Source: a virus
Taxonomy: Duplodnaviria; Heunggongvirae; Uroviricota; Caudoviricetes
Reading direction: 5' to 3' (one strand)
IMG/VR virus record: IMGVR_UViG_2731957955_000008
Length of the DNA stretch: 13,570 nt
Positions 1 through 13,489 of this stretch are shown piece by piece. Both the position numbers and the translations under genes were made by a program. How positions within the stretch are numbered: position 1 is the first letter of the stretch; every line of letters begins with the position of its first letter. Below the pieces are notes generated by a model, which saw only the letters and a program-made list of their open reading frames with translations, was not told where the DNA came from and did not search any database.

Positions 1-20
1 GAAACATAATAATTGTTGTT

Positions 21-893
21 TTGTCAATATTAATTCTTTTTATTACTCCGTTTGTAGCAAAAAATCTAAGCAGTGACAATATAAAATATAGTCTTAATAT
101 TATACAATACTCGCTGAATCGTCATTTGTCGACGTGGAATACCGTGTACACCAAAATAATATCAGTATTTTGGCTTGTATTACTTATCAGCTCATGCATC
201 AGCATACGTAATTACTCAAAAATATGGTTGTGTATAATACTTATTAGTATAGTGTCAGTATGCAATAATCTAATTTTATTGTATTTTATTGATCAATCCC
301 ATCCTGCATGGTACATGACAAAATTTCTTGAATTGATATCAATGATTTATATCATTTCAACACTCATGTATTATGTTTTCAGGAAATTAAATCATGCTAA
401 TCATATGGCAATTCATGATCCACTAACGAATACATACAATAGAAGATACTTTATTGACTCATTGAAGAATATATCAAAACACCATGATTTCTCAGTAATA
501 ATGTTAGATATTGACAATTTCAAAAGCATCAATGACAAATGGGGGCATCATATGGGTGATCAAGTCATAGTAATGGTTACCAGAATAATAAAAAAATCTA
601 TCAGGAAAGAGGATATATTAGGGCGCTTAGGCGGTGAGGAGTTCGGTATTATCATTAAAGGTAATACTCAAAAGCTCTTGCTATCAATTGCAGAGCGAAT
701 CAGAAAAAACATTGAAGAGCAATGCTCGGAAAAATTATTATCGCATGGACCTGAGAAAATAACTGTCAGTATTGGTTGCTTTACTTCAAAAGAGAATAAT
801 CTCAGTCCATCTGAAATGTTAGTCAATGCCGATAAAGCGTTATATCAAGCCAAAAGAACCGGAAAAAACAAGGTGATAACTCACTCAAAATAA
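21..893 (+). CDS. Membrane-anchored GGDEF-domain diguanylate cyclase (putative c-di-GMP synthase); phage cargo (moron) gene
   Basis: Translation shows about four hydrophobic helices in the first ~125 aa, then a complete GGDEF domain: DPLTNTYNRRYF, DIDNFKSINDKWGHHMGD, an RKED I-site five residues before GGEEF (nt ~630-644), and ADKALYQAKRTGKNKV. The ORF track starts at a TTG (21), but the frame is open back to nt 3, so the true start may lie upstream of the window. The region is strongly AT-rich compared with the tail genes and is convergent with tfa. Confidence 0.85.
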   Translation: MSILILFITPFVAKNLSSDNIKYSLNIIQYSLNRHLSTWNTVYTKIISVFWLVLLISSCISIRNYSKIWLCIILISIVSVCNNLILLYFIDQSHPAWYMTKFLELISMIYIISTLMYYVFRKLNHANHMAIHDPLTNTYNRRYFIDSLKNISKHHDFSVIMLDIDNFKSINDKWGHHMGDQVIVMVTRIIKKSIRKEDILGRLGGEEFGIIIKGNTQKLLLSIAERIRKNIEEQCSEKLLSHGPEKITVSIGCFTSKENNLSPSEMLVNADKALYQAKRTGKNKVITHSK

Positions 894-966: not shown

Positions 967-1551
967 CTATTCGATAATGGGTACTGTTGGCCATTCAATA
1001 TCCGGTGCAGTTGTTGTATTAACACGGTTCAGCAACACCCGATACTTCTTCCAGGCTTCCAGCAACGAGGTTTCTTCCTCCGTTGCAATTTCCAGATCTG
1101 CAGCATCCTGAAGCGGCGCAATATGCTCACTGGCTACCTGCATCAGGCTGTTTTTTGTTTCTTCCGCCTCCCGGATCCGGAACAGTTTTTCTGCTTCTGC
1201 ATCTTTCACCCAGGCTGTGCCGTTCCACTTCTGATATTCCCCTCCCGGCGACAACCAGGTAACATTTTCCGGTAACGGACCGAGTTCAGAAATAAATAAC
1301 GCGTCGCCGGAAGCCACGTCATAAACCGTTTTACCCCGATGGTCTTCAACGAGATGCCACGATGCCTCATCACTGTTGAAAACAGCCACGAAGCCTGCCG
1401 GAATATCCGGCGGTGCAATATCGGTACTGTTTGCTGGCAGACCTGTATGAGACGGAATATATGCATCACCTTCACCAATAAATTCATTAGTTCCGGCCAG
1501 CAGATTATAAATTTTTATGGTCCGTGGTTGTTCACTCATTCTGAATGCCAT
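967..1551 (-). CDS. tfa: Tail fibre assembly protein (lambda Tfa family)
   Basis: 194-aa ORF beginning [33 protein letters not shown], matching lambda Tfa in length and N-terminus as I recall it. Its ATG overlaps the stf stop as TAATG (1549-1553), indicating translational coupling. Confidence 0.95.
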
Positions 1552-4500
1552 TATGCAAGCCTCACAATATAGTTAAATGCGATGTTTTTGACGGTGTTTT
1601 CCGCGTTACCCGCAGCGTTAACGGTGATGGTATGTCCATGTGAGCCAATCGCAACGGAGTGCGTATGAGCACCAATACCGACAGTATGTGCATGTGCGCC
1701 TGCGCTTGCAGCAGTGCCGGACAGCGAGTGGGTATGAGCACCATCTGATGATGTCTTCCCTGCATTACGAGTCTGGCCACTACCGCTTGTTGTGCTCATA
1801 ATCCCCGCGCTTAGATTTGAAATCGCAGTATAACCATTAGGAAAAATGCTCGTGTTCGTGCCACCAAATGCACCGGAACTCTTGTGTTGGTGCGCACCGG
1901 CACTATTTGCTGTCCCGCTAATACTATGGGTATGTGCACCAGTGTTATTCGTGGATTTAGTGCCGTAATCAAAAGATGATGTGGTTTTCGTCCCCAAATC
2001 CGTACTGGATGCGCTGGCGCTGTGGGTATGCGATTTAATGCCATCCTGTTCCTGAGACAATACGGCACGACCACTGGCGGGCTTGCCCTTAATCGTCCAG
2101 CCACGCATATCAGGGATCACGCCTGACGGATAAGCGGCTGCAAGTTTCGGGTAAGCAGATTTGTCAAAAGTCTGCCCCTGCATCAGGGCATAACCAGACG
2201 GAACGGTATCTGATGGCCACGGGATTGGTGCACCGACTGGATAAAACTCTGCAGGAGGATGAGCCGAGGTGTAAAGCTGCGCCCACGGCGACCAGTTTGC
2301 GTCGGTCATATCCCGTCGTGAACGAATAAATGCCGGAGCATGAGCACCGCTTGTACCACTCCAGCCGATGAGTAACTCACCTTCGCCAACGGCTGTCATC
2401 CCTTTCAGGTGAATGATATTTCCATACGCTGTTGGATATCCGTTGTTATACACCTCGTATAACTCAAGACCTGCTGCCCCCTGCGTATTGTCTGTCAGCG
2501 CGGTTACCCGACCTTTTGAAGCCAGATTAACTGATGATACTGCTGTTCCACCTGACGGTAACGCCCCGATCTCTGATGCCGTTGGCTTATTTCTGGAGTT
2601 ATAGTCCCTTCGCCAGCCAGGTGAATAATCTGTTCCGTGATTAATATAGGTAAACTGGGCGTTAGTTGTTCCACCACCAGTGGAGGTGGTCGGTGTGGTA
2701 ATGCGGATCGTCATCGCTGACTTTATCCCCATTACTTCAATGACAGCTCCGGCGAGATGAATATTACCGCAGTCAGTATCAGTAATGATTTTATTATTGC
2801 CATAAGACCAGGACCCCTTGCACATCCAGTAGGGATGGTTAAATGCTCCCTGAGAATCCAGCCACTCGATAAACTGTGCAGTCGTCCAGTTTCCTGTTGT
2901 TGTGCTTACTGACCCACCGAAGGCACGGCAGGCACCAATATTTTTCGTAAAGGTGTCTTTGCCAGGGATATCCGCACCGTTCTGATCTTTCTGCAGACGT
3001 TTCTCAGCATTGTCATTGGCTGCTTTTACTGCCTTTGGCGTTGCCGCCAGCGTTTCAGACGTGCTGTTGGTCGCGCTGCTTAACTGGATTATCCCTTTCT
3101 GTGCTGTCGTTGCATCCTGTGCGGTGTATTTCCCGTTAGCCAGGTCATACGCGGCCTTAACGGCTTTTGGCGTTGCCGCCTGTGACTCGGAAGTGCTGTT
3201 GGTCGCACTACTGAGCTGGACTATCCCCTTTTTCGTCGTGCTCGCATCCTCAAGCGCCACGGCGGATGCAATATCCTCTGCCCGTTTTGCCGCTGTCTCG
3301 GCGCGCGTTGCCGCGGTTTCTGCCGTACTTTTGCTCTGTGCTGCCGCTGTCGCACTGCCAGCAGCCTCTGTCGCCTTCGTGGATGCTGTCGTGGCGCTGC
3401 CCTTCGCTGCTGACGCCTGTCTGGTCGCCTCATCTTTTGAAGCTGACGCCGATGATGCCGATGAAGCCGCCGAACTGGCGGACGATGCGGCAGCCGTTTT
3501 TGAGGATTCTGCGCTGGTTTCCGACGCTTTCGCGTTCGTCTCGGATGTCTTCGCTGCGGAAGCAGACCTCGCTGCTGCACTGGCCTGTTCAGTGGCTTCG
3601 CCAGCCTTCGTTGTGGCTGTTGAAGCAGACGAGGCGGCACTTTCTGCCGACTTTCCGGCAGCGGTGGCACTGGCTGAGGCCTGCCCGGCACTTGTTGAGG
3701 CGGCACTGGCAGATGATGCAGCCGCTGTTTTTGAGCCTGCCGCAGCTGAGGCACTCTGTCCCGCTGCCGTTTCAGAAGACCTGGCGTTCGTCTCAGACGT
3801 CTTTGCCGCCTTCGCGGAATTTCCTGCCGCCGTTGCCGAGGAAGCGGCACTACTGGCGCTTGATGATGCGTTCGTTTCTGATGATTTCGCTGCCTCTTTT
3901 GAGGCCGCCGCATCCCGGGCTGAGGTGGCAGCTTCTGACGCCTTTGTGGTCGCTGCGGATGCAGAAGTGGCTGTAGATTTTTGTGACGCTGCCGCATTCG
4001 TTTCTGACGTTTTCGCCGCACCGGCACTGGTAGCTGCCGCGCTTTTTGAGGACTCTGCAGCGGCAGCACTTTTTGATGCTTCAGTAGCCTTTGTTGATGC
4101 CGTTCCTGCGCTGGAAGACGCTGACTGAGCCGACGTCGCGGCCTGCCCGGCTGATGTGCTGGCTGCGCGTGCTGAGCCTGCAGCATCAGTCGCATGGGTT
4201 GCCGCCTCACGTGCTGATGTGCCGGCATCGCTGGCTGACTTCTTCGCGGCTGCCGTGTTCTGTGCCACCGCGGACGCGTTACGCGCCACCTCTTCCACCA
4301 TCAGTTCAAAACGGCGCAGTGCCTCAGGACGGGCATCATCCTCCGTCATGGCACCGAGAAAATCATTCAGCGTACCGGGTCGGGAATCTTCATACACGGT
4401 GATGGTCCCGGCATGTGACGGCGGGAATCCCTCCACCAACAGAATAACGCTGTACTGCCCGTACTCAACGTCCATGCTGTAACGCCCGGCTTCATCCGGA

Positions 4501-4625
4501 TTTTCTGAGGCCAGCGTGTTCACCACCACCGTGGTGCTGTTACGTTTTGCTTTCAGCTGGATTGTGCAGTTCTGTACCGGTTTTCCTGTGCCGTCTTTCA
4601 GTACACCTGAAATCTTTACTGCCAT
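1551..4625 (-). CDS. stf: Side tail fibre protein (lambda Stf family), intact, long mosaic form of ~1024 aa
   Basis: N-terminus [26 protein letters not shown] is Stf-like. It is followed by a long Ala/Ser/Thr-rich repeat region with three KTSETNA units, two tandem fibre-repeat motifs ([26 protein letters not shown] and [26 protein letters not shown]), a Cys/Trp-containing central domain, and a C-terminal His-box region ending [12 protein letters not shown] place the start at the ATG at 4623-4625, preceded by GGGGTG; the ORF track begins at an in-frame GTG two codons upstream (4631). Confidence 0.93.
3038..3250 (-). repeat. Imperfect direct DNA repeat (~85-95 bp units, ~130 bp apart) inside stf, encoding the two tandem fibre-repeat motifs
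   Basis: Unit 1 (~3038-3125) and unit 2 (~3168-3250) share long near-identical runs, e.g. ttggcgttgccgcc and gtgctgttggtcgc(g/a)ct(g/a)ct(t/g)a(a/g)ctgga(t/c)tatccc. This was read directly from the sequence. Confidence 0.7.
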
Positions 4626-4634
4626 ATTCACCCC

Positions 4635-4689: not shown

Positions 4690-5289
4690 TCAGAATTTAT
4701 AACCGACACCCACGATGAAACCGTCAGTGCGCCAGTCACCACTGCCGGAGCCTTCATAAGCAATATCAATGGCCACGGATTCGGTCGGGTTAAACTGCAC
4801 GCCAGCCCCCCACGCCAGAGACGTGTTGCTGTGGCGACCGTCATCACTTCCGGTCAGCACATCGTGCTTTTTCCCCTTGTTGTCAGTTACGCGAAGATAA
4901 TCCCCGGAGAAAGTCGACACACGGCTGTAAGCTACACCCGCCATCGCATACGCGCTGAACCATTCATTTACGCGCACAGACGGCCCCGCCATTACGCTGA
5001 ACCAGCGGTTACGCACGGAATCTTCATGCCAGCGGGTATCGCTGTAACGGGTCAGCTGGCGATTCTTGTCTCCTGCATAGCTGAATGACGTCACCAGCCC
5101 CAGTGTGTCCGTAAACTCATAACGGTATTTCACGTTAATCCCGTTCAGATCATCACTGCCGGGGACGTTCGTCGAGGCATGAAGATACCCCGCGCTCAGC
5201 GTGGACTGATGTTCAGACGCCCATGCAGGCGCACCGGATACGGCCAGACAAATGGCTGCGGACAAAATTGCTGCACAAACTTTACGCAT
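4690..5289 (-). CDS. lom: Lom outer-membrane protein (Ail/Lom beta-barrel family), lysogenic-conversion moron
   Basis: 199-aa ORF MRKVCAAILSAAICLAVSGAPAWASEHQSTLSAGYLHAS with a signal peptide, alternating amphipathic strands and a C-terminal GVGYKF typical of outer-membrane barrels. It sits between J and stf exactly as in lambda and is bracketed by hairpins on both sides. Confidence 0.95.
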   Translation of the reverse strand: MRKVCAAILSAAICLAVSGAPAWASEHQSTLSAGYLHASTNVPGSDDLNGINVKYRYEFTDTLGLVTSFSYAGDKNRQLTRYSDTRWHEDSVRNRWFSVMAGPSVRVNEWFSAYAMAGVAYSRVSTFSGDYLRVTDNKGKKHDVLTGSDDGRHSNTSLAWGAGVQFNPTESVAIDIAYEGSGSGDWRTDGFIVGVGYKF

Positions 5290-5313
5290 AATTACCTCTC
5301 GCTTTTCTGCAAT

Positions 5314-5337
5314 AAAAAAGGCGTCATTCCTGACGCC
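5314..5337 (-). terminator. Terminator-like hairpin between J stop and lom start
   Basis: 7-bp stem ggcgtca / tgacgcc (5320-5326 and 5331-5337) with loop ttcc, followed on the minus strand by TTTTTT (complement of 5314-5319). A lom SD (gagagg) lies just downstream on the minus strand. Confidence 0.5.
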
Positions 5338-5359
5338 CTTTATTGGGGTTATAAATATT

Positions 5360-8300
5360 TCAACGAATACTGATGCCGGAAGCGGCTTTTTTGGTCACAA
5401 TCACCGTACAGTCGGTGATATTGCCTGCCCCCTGATTGCCTTTCTGGAAAATCTTAAACTCCAGAGTGACGCTTCCCCTGCCACTCGGCATATCAATAAC
5501 TGCACTGTAACTACCGGGAATGGCCCCTTTAGTTTCTCTGGATGCGATTAATACGCCGTTTTTGCGAACTTCAAAACCATAACCCGTGTATCGCGTGCCT
5601 CCTGGGTTATTTCCGCTCCCCGGATCGTCATACGCTATACCGTTAAAAATAATGGGCGGAATAATAATCTGGCGGTCAAAGTTATGATCATCGCTGATGG
5701 TGACTGTAACCGTACCGTTTGGTGTTTCCGTGTTACCCCACGTACCGACTTTTTTCGGGAAGGCTTTTGATACAGCTTTAACGAAATCTCCTCTGACCTG
5801 GGTCGCCTCCAGCATGCCCTTAATCGTACAGTTCTGGTTAATCGTGACATTGTTGAGCGTTCCTGAGTTCGCATTCACACTGCCACTGATATCCGCATTT
5901 TTCGCCGTCAGTCTCCCGTCTGATGTCAGGGAAAATGCCGGAGGATTACCGCCGCTGGTAATGGTGGGGGCCGTCAGGCGTTTCAGGAACACTTCATTCA
6001 TGAATATCTGATCGCCCTGACCAACAAACATCGGCTTTGTGTTGCCATTCGCAGGATTAATCATCGCAATCCTGTCTGCTGCCAGCAGCACCTGACTCTG
6101 CATGCCGTCAGGGGTGTTCTCAATACCGGCACCGATACCCGCAATATAAAGGCGTCCGTCCTGCATCTGCTGCAGCTTCACTGCCCACATGCTGTTCAGG
6201 TTATTATTTGTATCAACCTGAACCTTCTGTATCTGCTGGATCGCTGCACTCTGGTCTTCCAGTTTCTTATTGACGGTCTGTGTTATTTCATTGCTGACAT
6301 CCGTTATGGACGTCCTGATTTCAGTCAGGTCAGGCGCAAGCTGACCGTTATCAATCTGCGTCCACAGCTCCTGAGCCAGATGGGTTTTCCCTATCTCGCC
6401 TTTGAAAAAATCCAGATAGCCTGATGCATCATCACTCGGCTGACCGACAGCCTCCACGAATGCCGATTTGCCAACGGTGTTCACACTGCGAACGTAAAAA
6501 TAATAATCATGGCCCGGTTTGATATTGATACTGGCGGCTATCCAGTACAGTGCCGTACCAAGATAACGCGCGCTGGTTTCAACCTGCCTGATATCCGCAA
6601 TCCGTTTTTCCGAGAACCAGAACTCAAACTGTACCGTCGGGTCATAAACCGCAAGATGCGGCGTGGCGGTTATCTGAAAATAGCCCGGCGTCAGCTCAAT
6701 CCGCGACGGCGCTGCCGGTGCGGCAATCCGGAACGATACCGACGCCGGATCGCCCTGCTGCCCCCACGCATTTACTGCCCGGACTGTCAGCCTGTAGTTC
6801 CCCAGAGCCAGTTGTGTGAAGCGGTAAGTGGTTTCCGTCGTCCGGGCCGTGCTGACCAGCCGCTCACGGCCGTCATCCGCTGCCACGGTCAGGCGAAGCA
6901 GGAAGCTCACGCCCTTCACCACCTTCGGCGTGTCCCAGCGCGCCAGCACCTGGTATTCCCCGCTGTCTGCGGTGACTTCTGCGGTCAGGTGCTGCACCGC
7001 TGGCGGCGTGACACCATTTACCGTGCCGCTCTGGTCGCCGTCAAAGTGCGCCCCGTTATCCACGATGGCCTCTTTTTCCGGTACATGCTGCACGGCGGTG
7101 ATGGCATACGTGCCGTCGTCGTTCTCACGGATACTCACGCAGCGGAACAGGCGCTGGCGCAACGTCGGCAGCTTCAGCCCCCATACGCTGTATTCAGCAA
7201 CGCCGTCAGGAACACGGCTCACTTTCACCTTCACGCCGTCGGTGACGGACTGAACCTCCACGCTGACCGGATTACCACTTCCGTCAACCAGGCTTATCAG
7301 CGTGGTACCGGAGGATGGCAGCGTGATTTCACGGTCGAGCGTCAGCGTCCGGGTCTGGCTGTTCACCGCCAGCACGCGCCCGCCGGTGCGGATACCGGCA
7401 TAGTCATCATCGCAGATTTCAATGACATCGCCCGGTACATGGCGAAGCCCTTCGGCACCCACGCTGAAGTCCACGGTCTGCGTTTCCAGCAGTTCTGTTT
7501 TAATCAGCCACAGCCCGGCGCGGTGTGCCTGCCCCCGGCTGGTACAGCCAAAAGCATCCATCTTCGTGACGTTACGACCGTAACGGGCAATGGCCTGCGT
7601 GTCCTCCACAAGCTCTGTCGCCGTCTCCCAGCCGTTATTCGGGTCAATCCAGTTCACCTCAACGGCATTATGGCGGTCCTTCAGGGCGCTGAAGCTGTAG
7701 CGGAACGGCGCACCATCATCCGGCATCACCACATTACTGCGGTTATAGGTCCACACCTTATCCGACGGTCGGTCCTGCACGAACGTCAGCGTCTGCCCGT
7801 TCCATACCGGCATACAGCGCATCGCAGAGCAGAAATCACTGAGCACATCCCACGCCTTACGCTGTGTGGTCAGCCAGGCATTACAGGTGATGCGCGGCTC
7901 CGTGCCGCCAAAGCCGTCCGGCACTGACTGGTCGCAGTACTGGCCGATAAGATACAGCGCCCATTTATCCACATCCACCGCACCAAGACGTTTCCCCATG
8001 CCGTAGCGCGGATGGGTCAGCATATCCCACAGACACCAGGCCGNGTTGTTGCTGTATGCCGGTTTAAACGTTCCGTCCCAGATACCGCTGTATTGCCGCG
8101 TCTGCGGGTTATAATTCGACGGCACCTGCAGAATACGCCCGCGCAGATGATAATTACGGCTCACCTGCTGGCTGCCGAACTGCTCCGAGTCCACCTGCAC
8201 GCCGACCAGTGCCGTGTTCGGGTAGCACTGTTTCACATCGATAATTTCGGTGTATGACGACCAGAGCGTTTTGTTCTGCAGCTGGTCTGTGGTGCTGTCC

Positions 8301-8857
8301 GGCGTCATCCTGCGCATCCGGATATTAAACGGGCGCGGCGGCAGGTTATCCACCACCACCGAGGCCAGATACTGTGAAGTGGTTTTACCCTTAATGGTGA
8401 TGTCTTTTTCCGTCACCCAGCCACCGTTACGTTGTATCTGAACCAGCAGGCGGACTTCCGATGGATTCCTGTCCCCCTTTGAGGTGGTTTCCACCAGTGC
8501 CTGCACGCCGAAAGTAAAACGCAGACGGTCAATGTTTGCCGACGTGATGGTCCGGGTGATCGGCGTGTCATATTTCACTTCTGTACCGAGCACCGTCTCG
8601 GAGCCGGAGGATTCAAATCCCTCCGGCGGTGTCTGCTCCTGCTCACCGGCCCGGAACACCACCGTGACGCCGGATATATTGGTATTCCCCTCACTGTCCA
8701 GCACCGGCGTACTGTTCAGCAGCACGCTTTTTAATCCATCCACCGGACCTTCAACCGGCCCTTCGCTGATGGCATCGATCACACTCAGCAGCTGCGTGGA
8801 CTTCAGGTTNTCNTTCGCTTCGCGCGGGGTATGCCCCTTACTGCTGCCTTTACCCAT
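5360..8857 (-). CDS. J: Tail tip / host-specificity protein J (central tail fibre)
   Basis: 1165-aa ORF beginning [14 protein letters not shown], in the expected position after I and before lom. Lambda J is 1132 aa as I recall, so this is a length variant. Several X residues come from N bases (e.g. 8043, 8810, 8813). Confidence 0.95.
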
Positions 8858-11263: not shown

Positions 11264-11697
11264 CGTCCACCTCCGGAGAACAGGCCACCATCACGCATCT
11301 GTGTCTGAATTTCATCACGGGCACCCTTGCGGGCCATGTCATACACCGCCTTCAGAGCAGCCGGACCTATCTGCCCGTTCGTGCCGTCGTTGTTAATCAC
11401 CACATGGTTATTCTGCTCAAACGTCCCGGACGCCTGCGACCGGCTGTCTGCCATGCTGCCCGGTGTACCGACATAACCGCCGGTGGCATAGCCGCGCATC
11501 AGCCGGTAAAGATTCCCCACGCCAATCCGGCTGGTTGCCTCCTTCGTGAAGACAAACTCACCACGGTGAACAATCCCCGCTGGCTCATATTTGCCGCCGG
11601 TTCCCGTAAATCCTCCGGTTGCAAAATGGAATTTCGCCGCAGCGGCCTGAATGGCTGTACCGCCTGACGCGGATGCGCCGCCACCAACAGCGTTCCT
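11260..11697 (-). CDS. H: Tape measure protein H, C-terminal segment (second frame of a disrupted H gene)
   Basis: This frame is open from just after a TGA at 11698-11700 down to the stop at 11260. By my own translation it encodes AVGGGASASGGTAIQAAAAKFHFATGGFTGTGGKYEPAGIVHRGEFVFTKEATSRIGVGNLYRLMRGYATGGYVGTP, continuing to the ORF-track ending DGGLFSGGGR, a Gly-rich tape-measure C-terminus. Confidence 0.8.
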   Translation of the reverse strand, partial: RNAVGGGASASGGTAIQAAAAKFHFATGGFTGTGGKYEPAGIVHRGEFVFTKEATSRIGVGNLYRLMRGYATGGYVGTPGSMADSRSQASGTFEQNNHVVINNDGTNGQIGPAALKAVYDMARKGARDEIQTQMRDGGLFSGGGR

Positions 11698-13489
11698 TCA
11701 GGCGCTGTTCCGTGGCTTCCCGTTCTGCCTGCCGGTCAGTCAGCCCCCGGCTTTTCGCATCAATGGCGGCCCGTTTTGCCCGTTGCTGCTGTGCGAATTT
11801 ATCCGCCTGCTGCGCCAGCGCGTTCAGGCGCTCCTGATACGTAACCTTGTCGCCAAGTGCAGCCAGCTGGCGTTTGTACTCCAGCGTCTCATCTTTATGC
11901 GCCAGCAGGGATTTCTCCTGTGCAGACAGCTGGCGACGTTGCGCCGCCTCCTCCAGTACCGCGAACTGACTCTCCGCCTTCCACAAATCCCGGCGCTGCT
12001 GGCTGATTTTCTCATTTGCTCCGGCATGCTTCTCCAGCGTCCGGAGTTCTGCCTGAAGCGTCAGCAGGGCAGCATGANCACTGTCTTCCTGACGATCGCC
12101 CGCAGACACCTTCACGCCGGACTGTTTCGGCTTTTTCAGCGTCGCTTCATAATCCTTTTTCGCCGCCGCCATCAGCGTGTTGTAATCCGCCTGCAGGATT
12201 TTCCCGTCTTTCAGTGCCTTGTTCAGTTCTTCCTGACGGGCGGTATATTTCTCCAGNGGCGTCTGCAGCCGTTCGTAAGCCTTCTGCGCCTCTTCGGTAT
12301 ATTTCAGCCGTGACGCTTCGGTATCGCTCTGCTGCTGCGCATTTTTGTCCTGTTGANTCTGCTGCTCAGCCTTCTTTCGGGCNGCTTCAAGCGCAAGACG
12401 GGCCTTTTCACGATCATCCCAGTAACGCGCCCGCGCTTCATCGTTAACAAAATAATCATCCTTGCGCAGATTCCAGATNTCGTCNGCTTTCTTAAACGCN
12501 GCCTCTGCCTTAATCAGCATCTCCTGCGCGGTATCAGGACGACCAATATCCAGCACCGCATCCCACATGGATTTGAATGCCCGNGCNGTCCTGTCTGCCC
12601 AGGTNTCCAGCGTGCCCATGTTCTCTTTCANGCGNCGGGTCTGGTCATCAAACCCTTTCGTTGCGGCCTCGTTCGCCGCCTGCAATGCCCCGGCTTCATC
12701 GCCGGAACGCTGCAACTGAGCAACATACGCAATCTGCTCCGCCGTCACGTTATGNAACTGGCGTGCCATCGCCGTCAGCCCCGACGTCGGGTCTGTGGTC
12801 AGCTTCCCGAAGGCTTCAGCGACCTTGTCCACCTCCACGCCGGATGCAGAGGAGAAACGCGCCACACTCTGGCTGATGGACGCAATCTGAGCCTCACCGC
12901 TTACCCCCGCCTTAACCAGTGCGCTGAGTGACTCGCTGGTCTGGTTAAACGTCAGCCCTGCCGCCTGCCCGGCTCTGGACAGGACCAGCATACGATCTGC
13001 CGTCAGTCCCGCCTGATTGCCGGAAAGGACCAGCGTTTTGTTGAAATCGGACAGGGTTGAGTTGCCCTGATACCAGGCATACGCCAGCGCNCCGGTCGCC
13101 ACCGCCAGCGAGGTNGCCCCCACCATCGGCAGGGTGATCGCACCGGCAAGCCCCCNGAACATGGGGATCATCCCGCCGAAGGAGTCCTTNACCTGACCNC
13201 CCTGTTGCAGCAGGATCAGCCACGGACTTTGCCCGCCTGCAAGCTGCGTGGCCACGTCNGTGAACTGNGCAGGCAGCATACGCATGGCGGCTTTATACTG
13301 CCCGACGGAAATNCCCGCTTTCTGTGCAGCCAGCGCCTGNCGGNTCANCGACTGTTCAACGACTGCCGCTGTTTTTTTCGCATCACTTTCCGTACCGGAA
13401 AAATGACGCCTGACTCTGGCCATCTGCTCGTCAAATCTGGCCGCATCCAGACTCAAATCAACGACCAGATCGCCTACCGGTTCAGCCAT
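11585..13489 (-). CDS. H: Tape measure protein H, N-terminal segment (frame leaves the H reading frame near nt 11692; tail of ORF is out-of-frame read-through)
   Basis: 634-aa ORF beginning MAEPVGDLVVDLSLDAARFDEQMARVRRHFSGTESDAKK with coiled-coil-rich, tape-measure-like content through ...ATEQRLKE. The last 35 aa (RCWWRRIRVRRYSHSG...) are Arg/Cys-rich nonsense. Many X residues come from N bases between 12067 and 13348. Confidence 0.85.
   Translation of the reverse strand: MAEPVGDLVVDLSLDAARFDEQMARVRRHFSGTESDAKKTAAVVEQSXXXQALAAQKAXISVGQYKAAMRMLPXQFXDVATQLAGGQSPWLILLQQXGQXKDSFGGMIPMFXGLAGAITLPMVGXTSLAVATXALAYAWYQGNSTLSDFNKTLVLSGNQAGLTADRMLVLSRAGQAAGLTFNQTSESLSALVKAGVSGEAQIASISQSVARFSSASGVEVDKVAEAFGKLTTDPTSGLTAMARQXHNVTAEQIAYVAQLQRSGDEAGALQAANEAATKGFDDQTXRXKENMGTLXTWADRXXRAFKSMWDAVLDIGRPDTAQEMLIKAEXAFKKXDXIWNLRKDDYFVNDEARARYWDDREKARLALEXARKKAEQQXQQDKNAQQQSDTEASRLKYTEEAQKAYERLQTXLEKYTARQEELNKALKDGKILQADYNTLMAAAKKDYEATLKKPKQSGVKVSAGDRQEDSXHAALLTLQAELRTLEKHAGANEKISQQRRDLWKAESQFAVLEEAAQRRQLSAQEKSLLAHKDETLEYKRQLAALGDKVTYQERLNALAQQADKFAQQQRAKRAAIDAKSRGLTDRQAEREATEQRLKERCWWRRIRVRRYSHSGRCGEIPFCNRRIYGNRRQI

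Follow-up and report, generated by a model that had tools for sequence, protein, structure and literature searches.

A lambda-type gene J with a long shaft allele and a 434-type tip, predicted to target OmpC, in a prophage of the Escherichia coli O104:H4/55989 lineage

The central tail fibre gene J studied here is, by sequence comparison, a natural three-module recombinant of lambda gpJ, in which a lambda-like body is followed by an alternative long shaft and by a tip of the 434 type. The receptor predicted for this fibre is OmpC and not LamB, an assignment that we hold to be highly probable. A J mosaic of this composition (lambda body, long shaft, 434 tip) is already known, annotated and widespread. 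What is gained is a correction at the level of annotation: the tail of a prophage of the O104:H4/55989 lineage is lambda-like, and its central fibre has OmpC as the predicted target. This is of use in anticipating which hosts the prophage, or vectors derived from it, would infect, and the gene adds one more case in which the J specificity region has been exchanged as a module.

The window, that is, the whole stretch of DNA analysed (13,570 nucleotides), corresponds by sequence match to a lambda-like prophage of E. coli O104:H4 (C227-11, HUSEC2011) and of strain 55989. It is identical to the O104:H4 reference except for a number of N bases and one deletion in gene H. The prophage adjoins bioA-ybhB and thus lies at the lambda attachment site, on its bio side. 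The tail operon has the order H-M-L-K-I-J, followed by lom, stf and tfa, both in the ORFs of the window and in the RefSeq annotation of the identical locus; lambda and 434 are arranged alike. Gene J and its downstream neighbours are the following:

5360..8857, minus strand: J, tip attachment protein and central tail fibre; an intact ORF with an ATG start, 1165 aa plus stop codon
5311..5337, minus strand: terminator-like site between J and lom, a hairpin (GGCGTCA-GGAA-TGACGCC) followed by TTTTTTATT, found by direct reading and a hairpin scan
4690..5289, minus strand: lom, Ail/Lom outer-membrane protein and downstream neighbour of J (Pfam Ail_Lom, E = 1e-122; RefSeq)
1551-4631, minus strand: stf, side tail fibre, intact, 1026 aa
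967-1551, minus strand: tfa, with a product 95% identical to lambda Tfa

The terminator-like hairpin starts 22 nt past the J stop codon, and phage 434 has an annotated terminator at the corresponding site. Two ORFs on the plus strand (5252-5551 and 5697-6011) are antisense to a strongly conserved coding frame and were rejected as spurious; a scan for promoter-like sites gave no excess over chance. At the left end of the window, a flank of low GC content (positions 1-893, plus strand, GC 28-35%) codes for the C-terminal portion of a sensor diguanylate cyclase of the MASE4-GGDEF type. This fragment sits between tfa of the prophage and ybhB-bioA of the host, on the same bio side of the attachment site, and may be either prophage cargo or a small island.

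The product of J is a member of the lambda gpJ family, as its domains, its position in the operon and its full-length similarity all agree. It is annotated in RefSeq as gpJ, "phage attachment tail tip protein J" (WP_000515639.1, E. coli O104:H4 C227-11). Six Pfam families are found in it, all above the gathering cut-offs and in the order expected for gpJ: FNIII-A_GpJ (residues 86-207), Phage-tail_3 (330-498) and Ig_J (610-714) in the first half, and Ig_J_second (716-818), Phage_Tail_Tip (872-1000) and Ig_GpJ_C (1029-1164) in the second, the last being the family that Pfam names [quoted passage not shown]. Over its full length the protein is 82% identical to lambda J (BLASTP). Three codons read as X, owing to isolated N bases at 8044, 8810 and 8813, where the reference genome has G, A and T, respectively.

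Such N bases are not confined to J. There are 40 of them, all isolated, between window positions 8044 and 13348, and most are the third base of a codon in one of the tail genes J, I, K, L and H, which are common to 4-5 lambdoid prophages per genome. The pattern looks like that of ambiguous consensus calls made from mixed reads of paralogous prophages. In the same region, the tape-measure gene H is left as a remnant ORF (11585..13489, minus strand), with a frame-breaking deletion of 332 bp at 11691/11692 relative to the O104:H4/55989 genomes: its product has 853 aa in the reference genomes of the lineage, and the frame breaks after 634 aa in the window. The junction shows no microhomology. Among the best matches listed in complete E. 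coli genomes none contains it as one contiguous piece, all of them being split into two pieces that span 632 bp. The deletion is either an assembly artefact or the mark of a tail-defective prophage.

In the latter case, J would be an intact gene carried in a defective prophage, with no current role in infection in its host, which we regard as possible though on balance unlikely. The loss of the H frame against otherwise identical genomes speaks for it, as does a junction never seen in one contiguous piece among the best complete-genome matches listed. Nevertheless, an artefact of assembly could account for that junction, given the lack of microhomology and the 40 isolated N bases of the same stretch, and J is of full length, while H itself is intact in reference genomes of the same lineage. 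It is important to note that a defect of this sort would bear on the viability of the prophage and not on the identity of J, so that it is compatible with the three-module explanation, whose evidence is given below.

An earlier note on this DNA had given J as 1165 aa against 1132 aa for lambda, and both lengths are right (ORF translation; lambda J, NC_001416, 15505-18903, NP_040600). Of the 33 additional residues, 28 come from one insertion in the shaft and the rest is the net outcome of four small indels in the receptor-binding domain. The sum is simple when phage 434 is taken as an intermediate, its J of 1137 aa plus 28 giving 1165, and the remaining five residues relative to lambda arising from the indels of the receptor-binding domain. 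Segment identities were obtained by cutting into blocks a MAFFT alignment with lambda J, 434 J and lambda h434 imm21 J, and nucleotide identity was followed along the gene in windows of 90 nt. The gene divides as follows:

6443..8857, minus strand: module 1, aa 1-805, hub domains of the lambda type with two FNIII/Ig domains; 785 of 802 aa the same as in lambda J
5993..6442, minus strand: module 2, aa 806-955, comprising the alpha-helical shaft and the upper beta-prism fibre in an alternative "long" allele
6260..6352, minus strand: within module 2, the 28 residues extra to lambda and 434 (aa ~836-866), seen as gaps in the BLASTP and MAFFT alignments
5858..5992, minus strand: aa 956-1000, conserved lower fibre segment common to lambda, 434 and the window J
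5363..5857, minus strand: module 3, aa 1001-1165, specificity region of the 434 type together with the receptor-binding domain (Ig_GpJ_C, aa 1029-1164)

In module 1 the protein has 97.9% identity to lambda J, the count against lambda h434 J being likewise 785 of 802, and its nucleotide identity to lambda/434 is about 96% (90-100% per 90-nt window). Nucleotide identity then falls sharply, at window position ~6425, and stays between 19 and 77% as far as ~5978; the encoded residues (aa 806-955/960) are identical to lambda and to 434 alike at only 70 of 155 positions (45%), with 28 gap positions. The segment that follows is again conserved, aa 951-1000 being identical at 47 of 50 positions to lambda J and at 46 of 50 to lambda h434 J, and the conserved stretch (aa 956-1000) is a likely recombination joint. 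A second sharp breakpoint is observed at window position ~5902. From gene nt 2956 (window 5902) the sequence turns 434-type, the first 113 nt showing no mismatch to 434 and the rest, up to the stop codon, 92-100% identity to it per 90-nt window, while lambda departs from the window J from gene nt ~2994 onward. The lambda-like N-terminal two-thirds and the divergence of the final ~300 residues described in the earlier note are therefore both real, although the drop begins at ~6425 and not at 6300, and the divergent end consists of two blocks around a conserved stretch and not of a single one. Alignment with lambda J gives 157 identities over the last 313 residues.

The tip is where the departure from lambda is of most consequence for the receptor. 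Summed over blocks of 50 aa, residues 1001-1165 are identical to lambda h434 J at 159 of 165 positions, with no indels, and to lambda J at 66 of 165 (about 40%). By tblastn, the last 166 residues are 96.4% identical to lambda h434 imm21 J and 39% identical to lambda. The same 166 residues are 100% identical in the phages mEp332, Kati and vB_EcoS-569R4, and 94.6-100% identical across a phage set that includes these three, ev099 and Stx phages. The tip is accordingly placed in the 434-type (h434) J specificity class, to which by its sequence it belongs. A lambda-type, LamB-binding tip was also considered for the window J and rejected: residues 1011-1165 match lambda J at 59 of 155 positions with 11 gap positions, and the gaps fall at the loops 1012, 1048, 1077 and 1107. 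The suspicion that the receptor-binding end of this J is unlike that of lambda was thus well founded, with ~40% identity over aa 1001-1165 and indels at specificity positions. These indels lie at or beside lambda residues 1012, 1048/49, 1077/78 and 1107, where Maddamsetti et al. 2018 (PMC6646904) place natural indel hotspots and sites of specificity.

The prediction of OmpC follows from the near-identity of this tip to that of h434, the classical host-range switch from LamB to OmpC. The C-terminus of gpJ sets specificity, and 434 J in place of lambda J switches the receptor to OmpC, which is the receptor of 434 itself (PMC3509688; PMC11101478). In lambda, the specificity region has been delimited to residues 960-1132 (PMC6646904). 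The J of the lambda h434 hybrid is identical to lambda up to gene nt 2132 and 434-type beyond, and the only dense differences between lambda and 434 J start at aa ~943-974; therefore, the host-range determinant of h434 coincides with the segment that it has in common with the window J. The hybrid also carries the lom and stf of 434, so that the role of the J tip in host range is taken from the literature and not from the comparison of sequences alone. OmpC is named as one receptor class among lambdoid mEp phages in a passage of PMC11893012 that cites Hernandez-Sanchez 2008. A search of the literature for a published receptor of phages with the window J variant (mEp332, Ayreon, cdtI, phiSTEC1575-Stx2k, ev243, PhiR phages and IdasGreatGrand) returned none.

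Module 1 is the hub with the FNIII domains, of lambda type, by which the tail tube is closed, and module 2 is an alternative allele of the putative trimeric alpha-helical shaft plus upper beta-prism, with 28 more residues of heptad periodicity. By analogy with lambda, the trimer of module 3, a 434-type Ig-like receptor-binding domain, would enter a trimeric porin of the outer membrane with its bottom loops, the porin being most likely OmpC in the case of this tip, and binding to the porin would then trigger the refolding of the shaft and the opening of the tube. The side fibres deserve a comment here. The Stf of the window is 80% identical to lambda Stf in its N-terminal part and 69% in its His-rich C-terminal tip, and the gene is free of the frameshift of stf in laboratory lambda. 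Since the Stf of Ur-lambda binds OmpC (PMC12617516), the side fibres and the central fibre of this prophage may, by analogy, both target OmpC.

Six substitutions separate the tip from that of lambda h434 (N1047D, D1078N, R1127G, I1136V, Q1138H and G1143W), some of them in or near the predicted receptor loops. At position 1143 relatives have G, R or W, and this site is three residues away from the counterpart of lambda 1107. Other gpJ types tell OmpC alleles apart (PMC11338833), and on account of this and of the six substitutions the range of OmpC variants recognised could differ from that of 434. A stronger effect would be that LamB, or a different porin such as OmpF, is still the receptor of the tip, a few loop substitutions having retargeted it so that its likeness to 434 does not predict the receptor. 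Small changes can indeed retarget lambda J from LamB to OmpF, four point mutations being sufficient (PMC6646904), and the six substitutions with their variable site beside the lambda-1107 equivalent could be read in the same light. We consider this improbable, as the tip is 96% identical to one whose OmpC host range has been defined by genetics, its identity to the LamB-binding tip is only ~40%, four indels in loop regions also separate it from the latter, and the substitutions seen are common natural polymorphisms of the 434-type class.

The extra length belongs to a different part of the fibre. The 28-residue insertion falls between the second Ig/FNIII domain and the fibre domain, immediately before the residues corresponding to lambda gpJ 841-861. 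At that interdomain place, cryo-EM of lambda has revealed a trimeric alpha-helical shaft (AHS), of which residues 841-861 refold into beta-strands on receptor binding (PMC11101478). Hydrophobic residues recur through the insertion at 3-4-3-4 spacing (L840, L844, I847, I851, V854, I858, V862 and L866), with a heptad a/d occupancy of 0.75 for aa 831-867. An AF2 monomer model of aa 790-1165 places helices at J residues 811-823, 826-836 and 841-890, at a pLDDT of only 50-60; the model was built on a 12-sequence alignment and has a mean pLDDT of 37 and a pTM of 0.27, a poor fit being expected for a monomer cut from a trimeric fibre. These features hint that the insertion lengthens the helical shaft. 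If all 28 residues were helical, the fibre would be ~4 nm longer, at ~0.15 nm per residue.

Shaft and tip occur in several combinations. In an alignment of 434-type tips from the protein database, such tips are joined to four shaft forms, the combinations being taken from a search with 8000 matches, mostly partial J fragments from draft assemblies. The first two forms are the short shaft of lambda/434 and the +28 form of the window J. The third is a second +28 form, about 60% identical to the first in that stretch, and the fourth has a further insertion of ~73 aa, which makes it ~100 aa longer than lambda (proteins P0108 and P0110, E. coli prophage). This further insertion is rich in heptad-like sequence and defines a third length class of the central fibre. 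On the other hand, Stx2 phage 1717 has a shaft 97% identical to that of the window J and a tip only 47% identical. With the same tip on four shafts and the same shaft on unrelated tips, the length variant and the receptor variant are independent of each other, and the occurrence of one tip with several shaft lengths points to modular exchange, which agrees with the separate phylogenies found for J and for its specificity region (PMC6646904). The same work mentions nested indels outside the specificity region, of unknown consequence and with no positions given in the text (Maddamsetti et al. 2018, PMC6646904); these may be the shaft-length indels of the window J.

The earlier note had implied a tie between the extra length and the receptor-binding region, which proves wrong, as the 28 residues sit in the shaft and vary independently of the tip. 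The notion that the extra length itself alters receptor specificity, the 33-aa difference being part of the receptor-binding region, is suggested by the presence of both the extra length and the divergent tip in one gene, within about 900 nt, but is scarcely credible, since the 28 residues (aa ~836-866) lie about 165 residues upstream of Ig_GpJ_C and outside the lambda specificity region 960-1132 (PMC6646904), phage 434 pairs its tip with the short shaft, other prophage J proteins pair a 434-type tip with the different +28 or the ~+100-aa shaft, and the long shaft of the window is also found with unrelated tips (Stx2 phage 1717).

The observed spread of the shaft allele is wide. At an amino acid identity of at least 95%, 65 phage records have the module 2 allele, Ayreon, ASU11 and Stx2 phage 1717 among them. 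Among 5426 complete E. coli genomes, DNA of the long shaft (303-nt module 2 probe) is present in 3555 and DNA of the tip in 2092; 1167 genomes have shaft and tip together, as judged by a match covering no less than 80% of a 1141-nt C-terminal probe. Given the 3555 genomes with long-shaft DNA, the long form of the shaft predominates in E. coli prophages and the short form of lambda is the less common one.

No study testing the nested indels outside the specificity region was found in the literature. That the polymorphism in shaft length and the few loop substitutions (for example at G1143) have functional consequences is a tentative idea, and we would sooner doubt it than adopt it. Shaft length might tune the reach of the tip through O-antigen or capsule, or the ease of the receptor-triggered refolding that opens the tail, and loop substitutions such as that at G1143 (R or W in relatives) might adapt the tip to particular OmpC alleles.

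Compared with known systems, lambda gpJ (NP_040600, 1132 aa, LamB-binding; PDB 8IYK, 8XCK and 8XCJ) has the same Pfam architecture and the conserved segment aa 956-1000, and differs in being shorter, in its different shaft allele and in a receptor-binding domain ~40% identical to that of the window J. The engineered chimeras A8 and 1A2 (PMC11338833; PDB 9wca, "A8 gpJ 713") consist of a lambda gpJ body with a swapped natural C-terminal tip and use OmpC. They show that exchange of the tip retargets the fibre; unlike the window J, they keep the short shaft of lambda. Identity of their tips with that of the window was rejected, as the A8 tip can be aligned with it yet diverges clearly in the receptor-binding domain, and the C-termini of 1A2 and A8 are of other sequence types. 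Among solved structures, none has the shaft allele of the window or a 434-type tip, the nearest being 9wca ("A8 gpJ 713") and lambda gpJ (8xck and 8xcj).

The J of phage 434 and lambda h434 (1137 aa, with an OmpC-dependent host range) has the same order of domains as the window J and is 91% identical to it overall, rising to 96-97% in the specificity region and receptor-binding domain, and the J locus is also alike (I-J-lom-stf-tfa). The differences lie in aa 806-955, where the other allele is present (45%), in the 28 aa by which the window J is longer and in the six substitutions of the tip. Full-length 1165-aa variants are found in the phages phiSTEC1575-Stx2k, PhiR42_1, ev243, Kati, mEp332, cdtI, Ayreon and phi458. 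The J genes of these eight phages are 94.5-98.3% identical to that of the window at the nucleotide level over 100% of the gene, with scattered substitutions only. Phages of the mEp332 type, with the identical tip, are plaque-forming phages of K-12. Judged by these matches, the J variant of the window occurs in free phages as well as in the O104:H4/55989 prophage.
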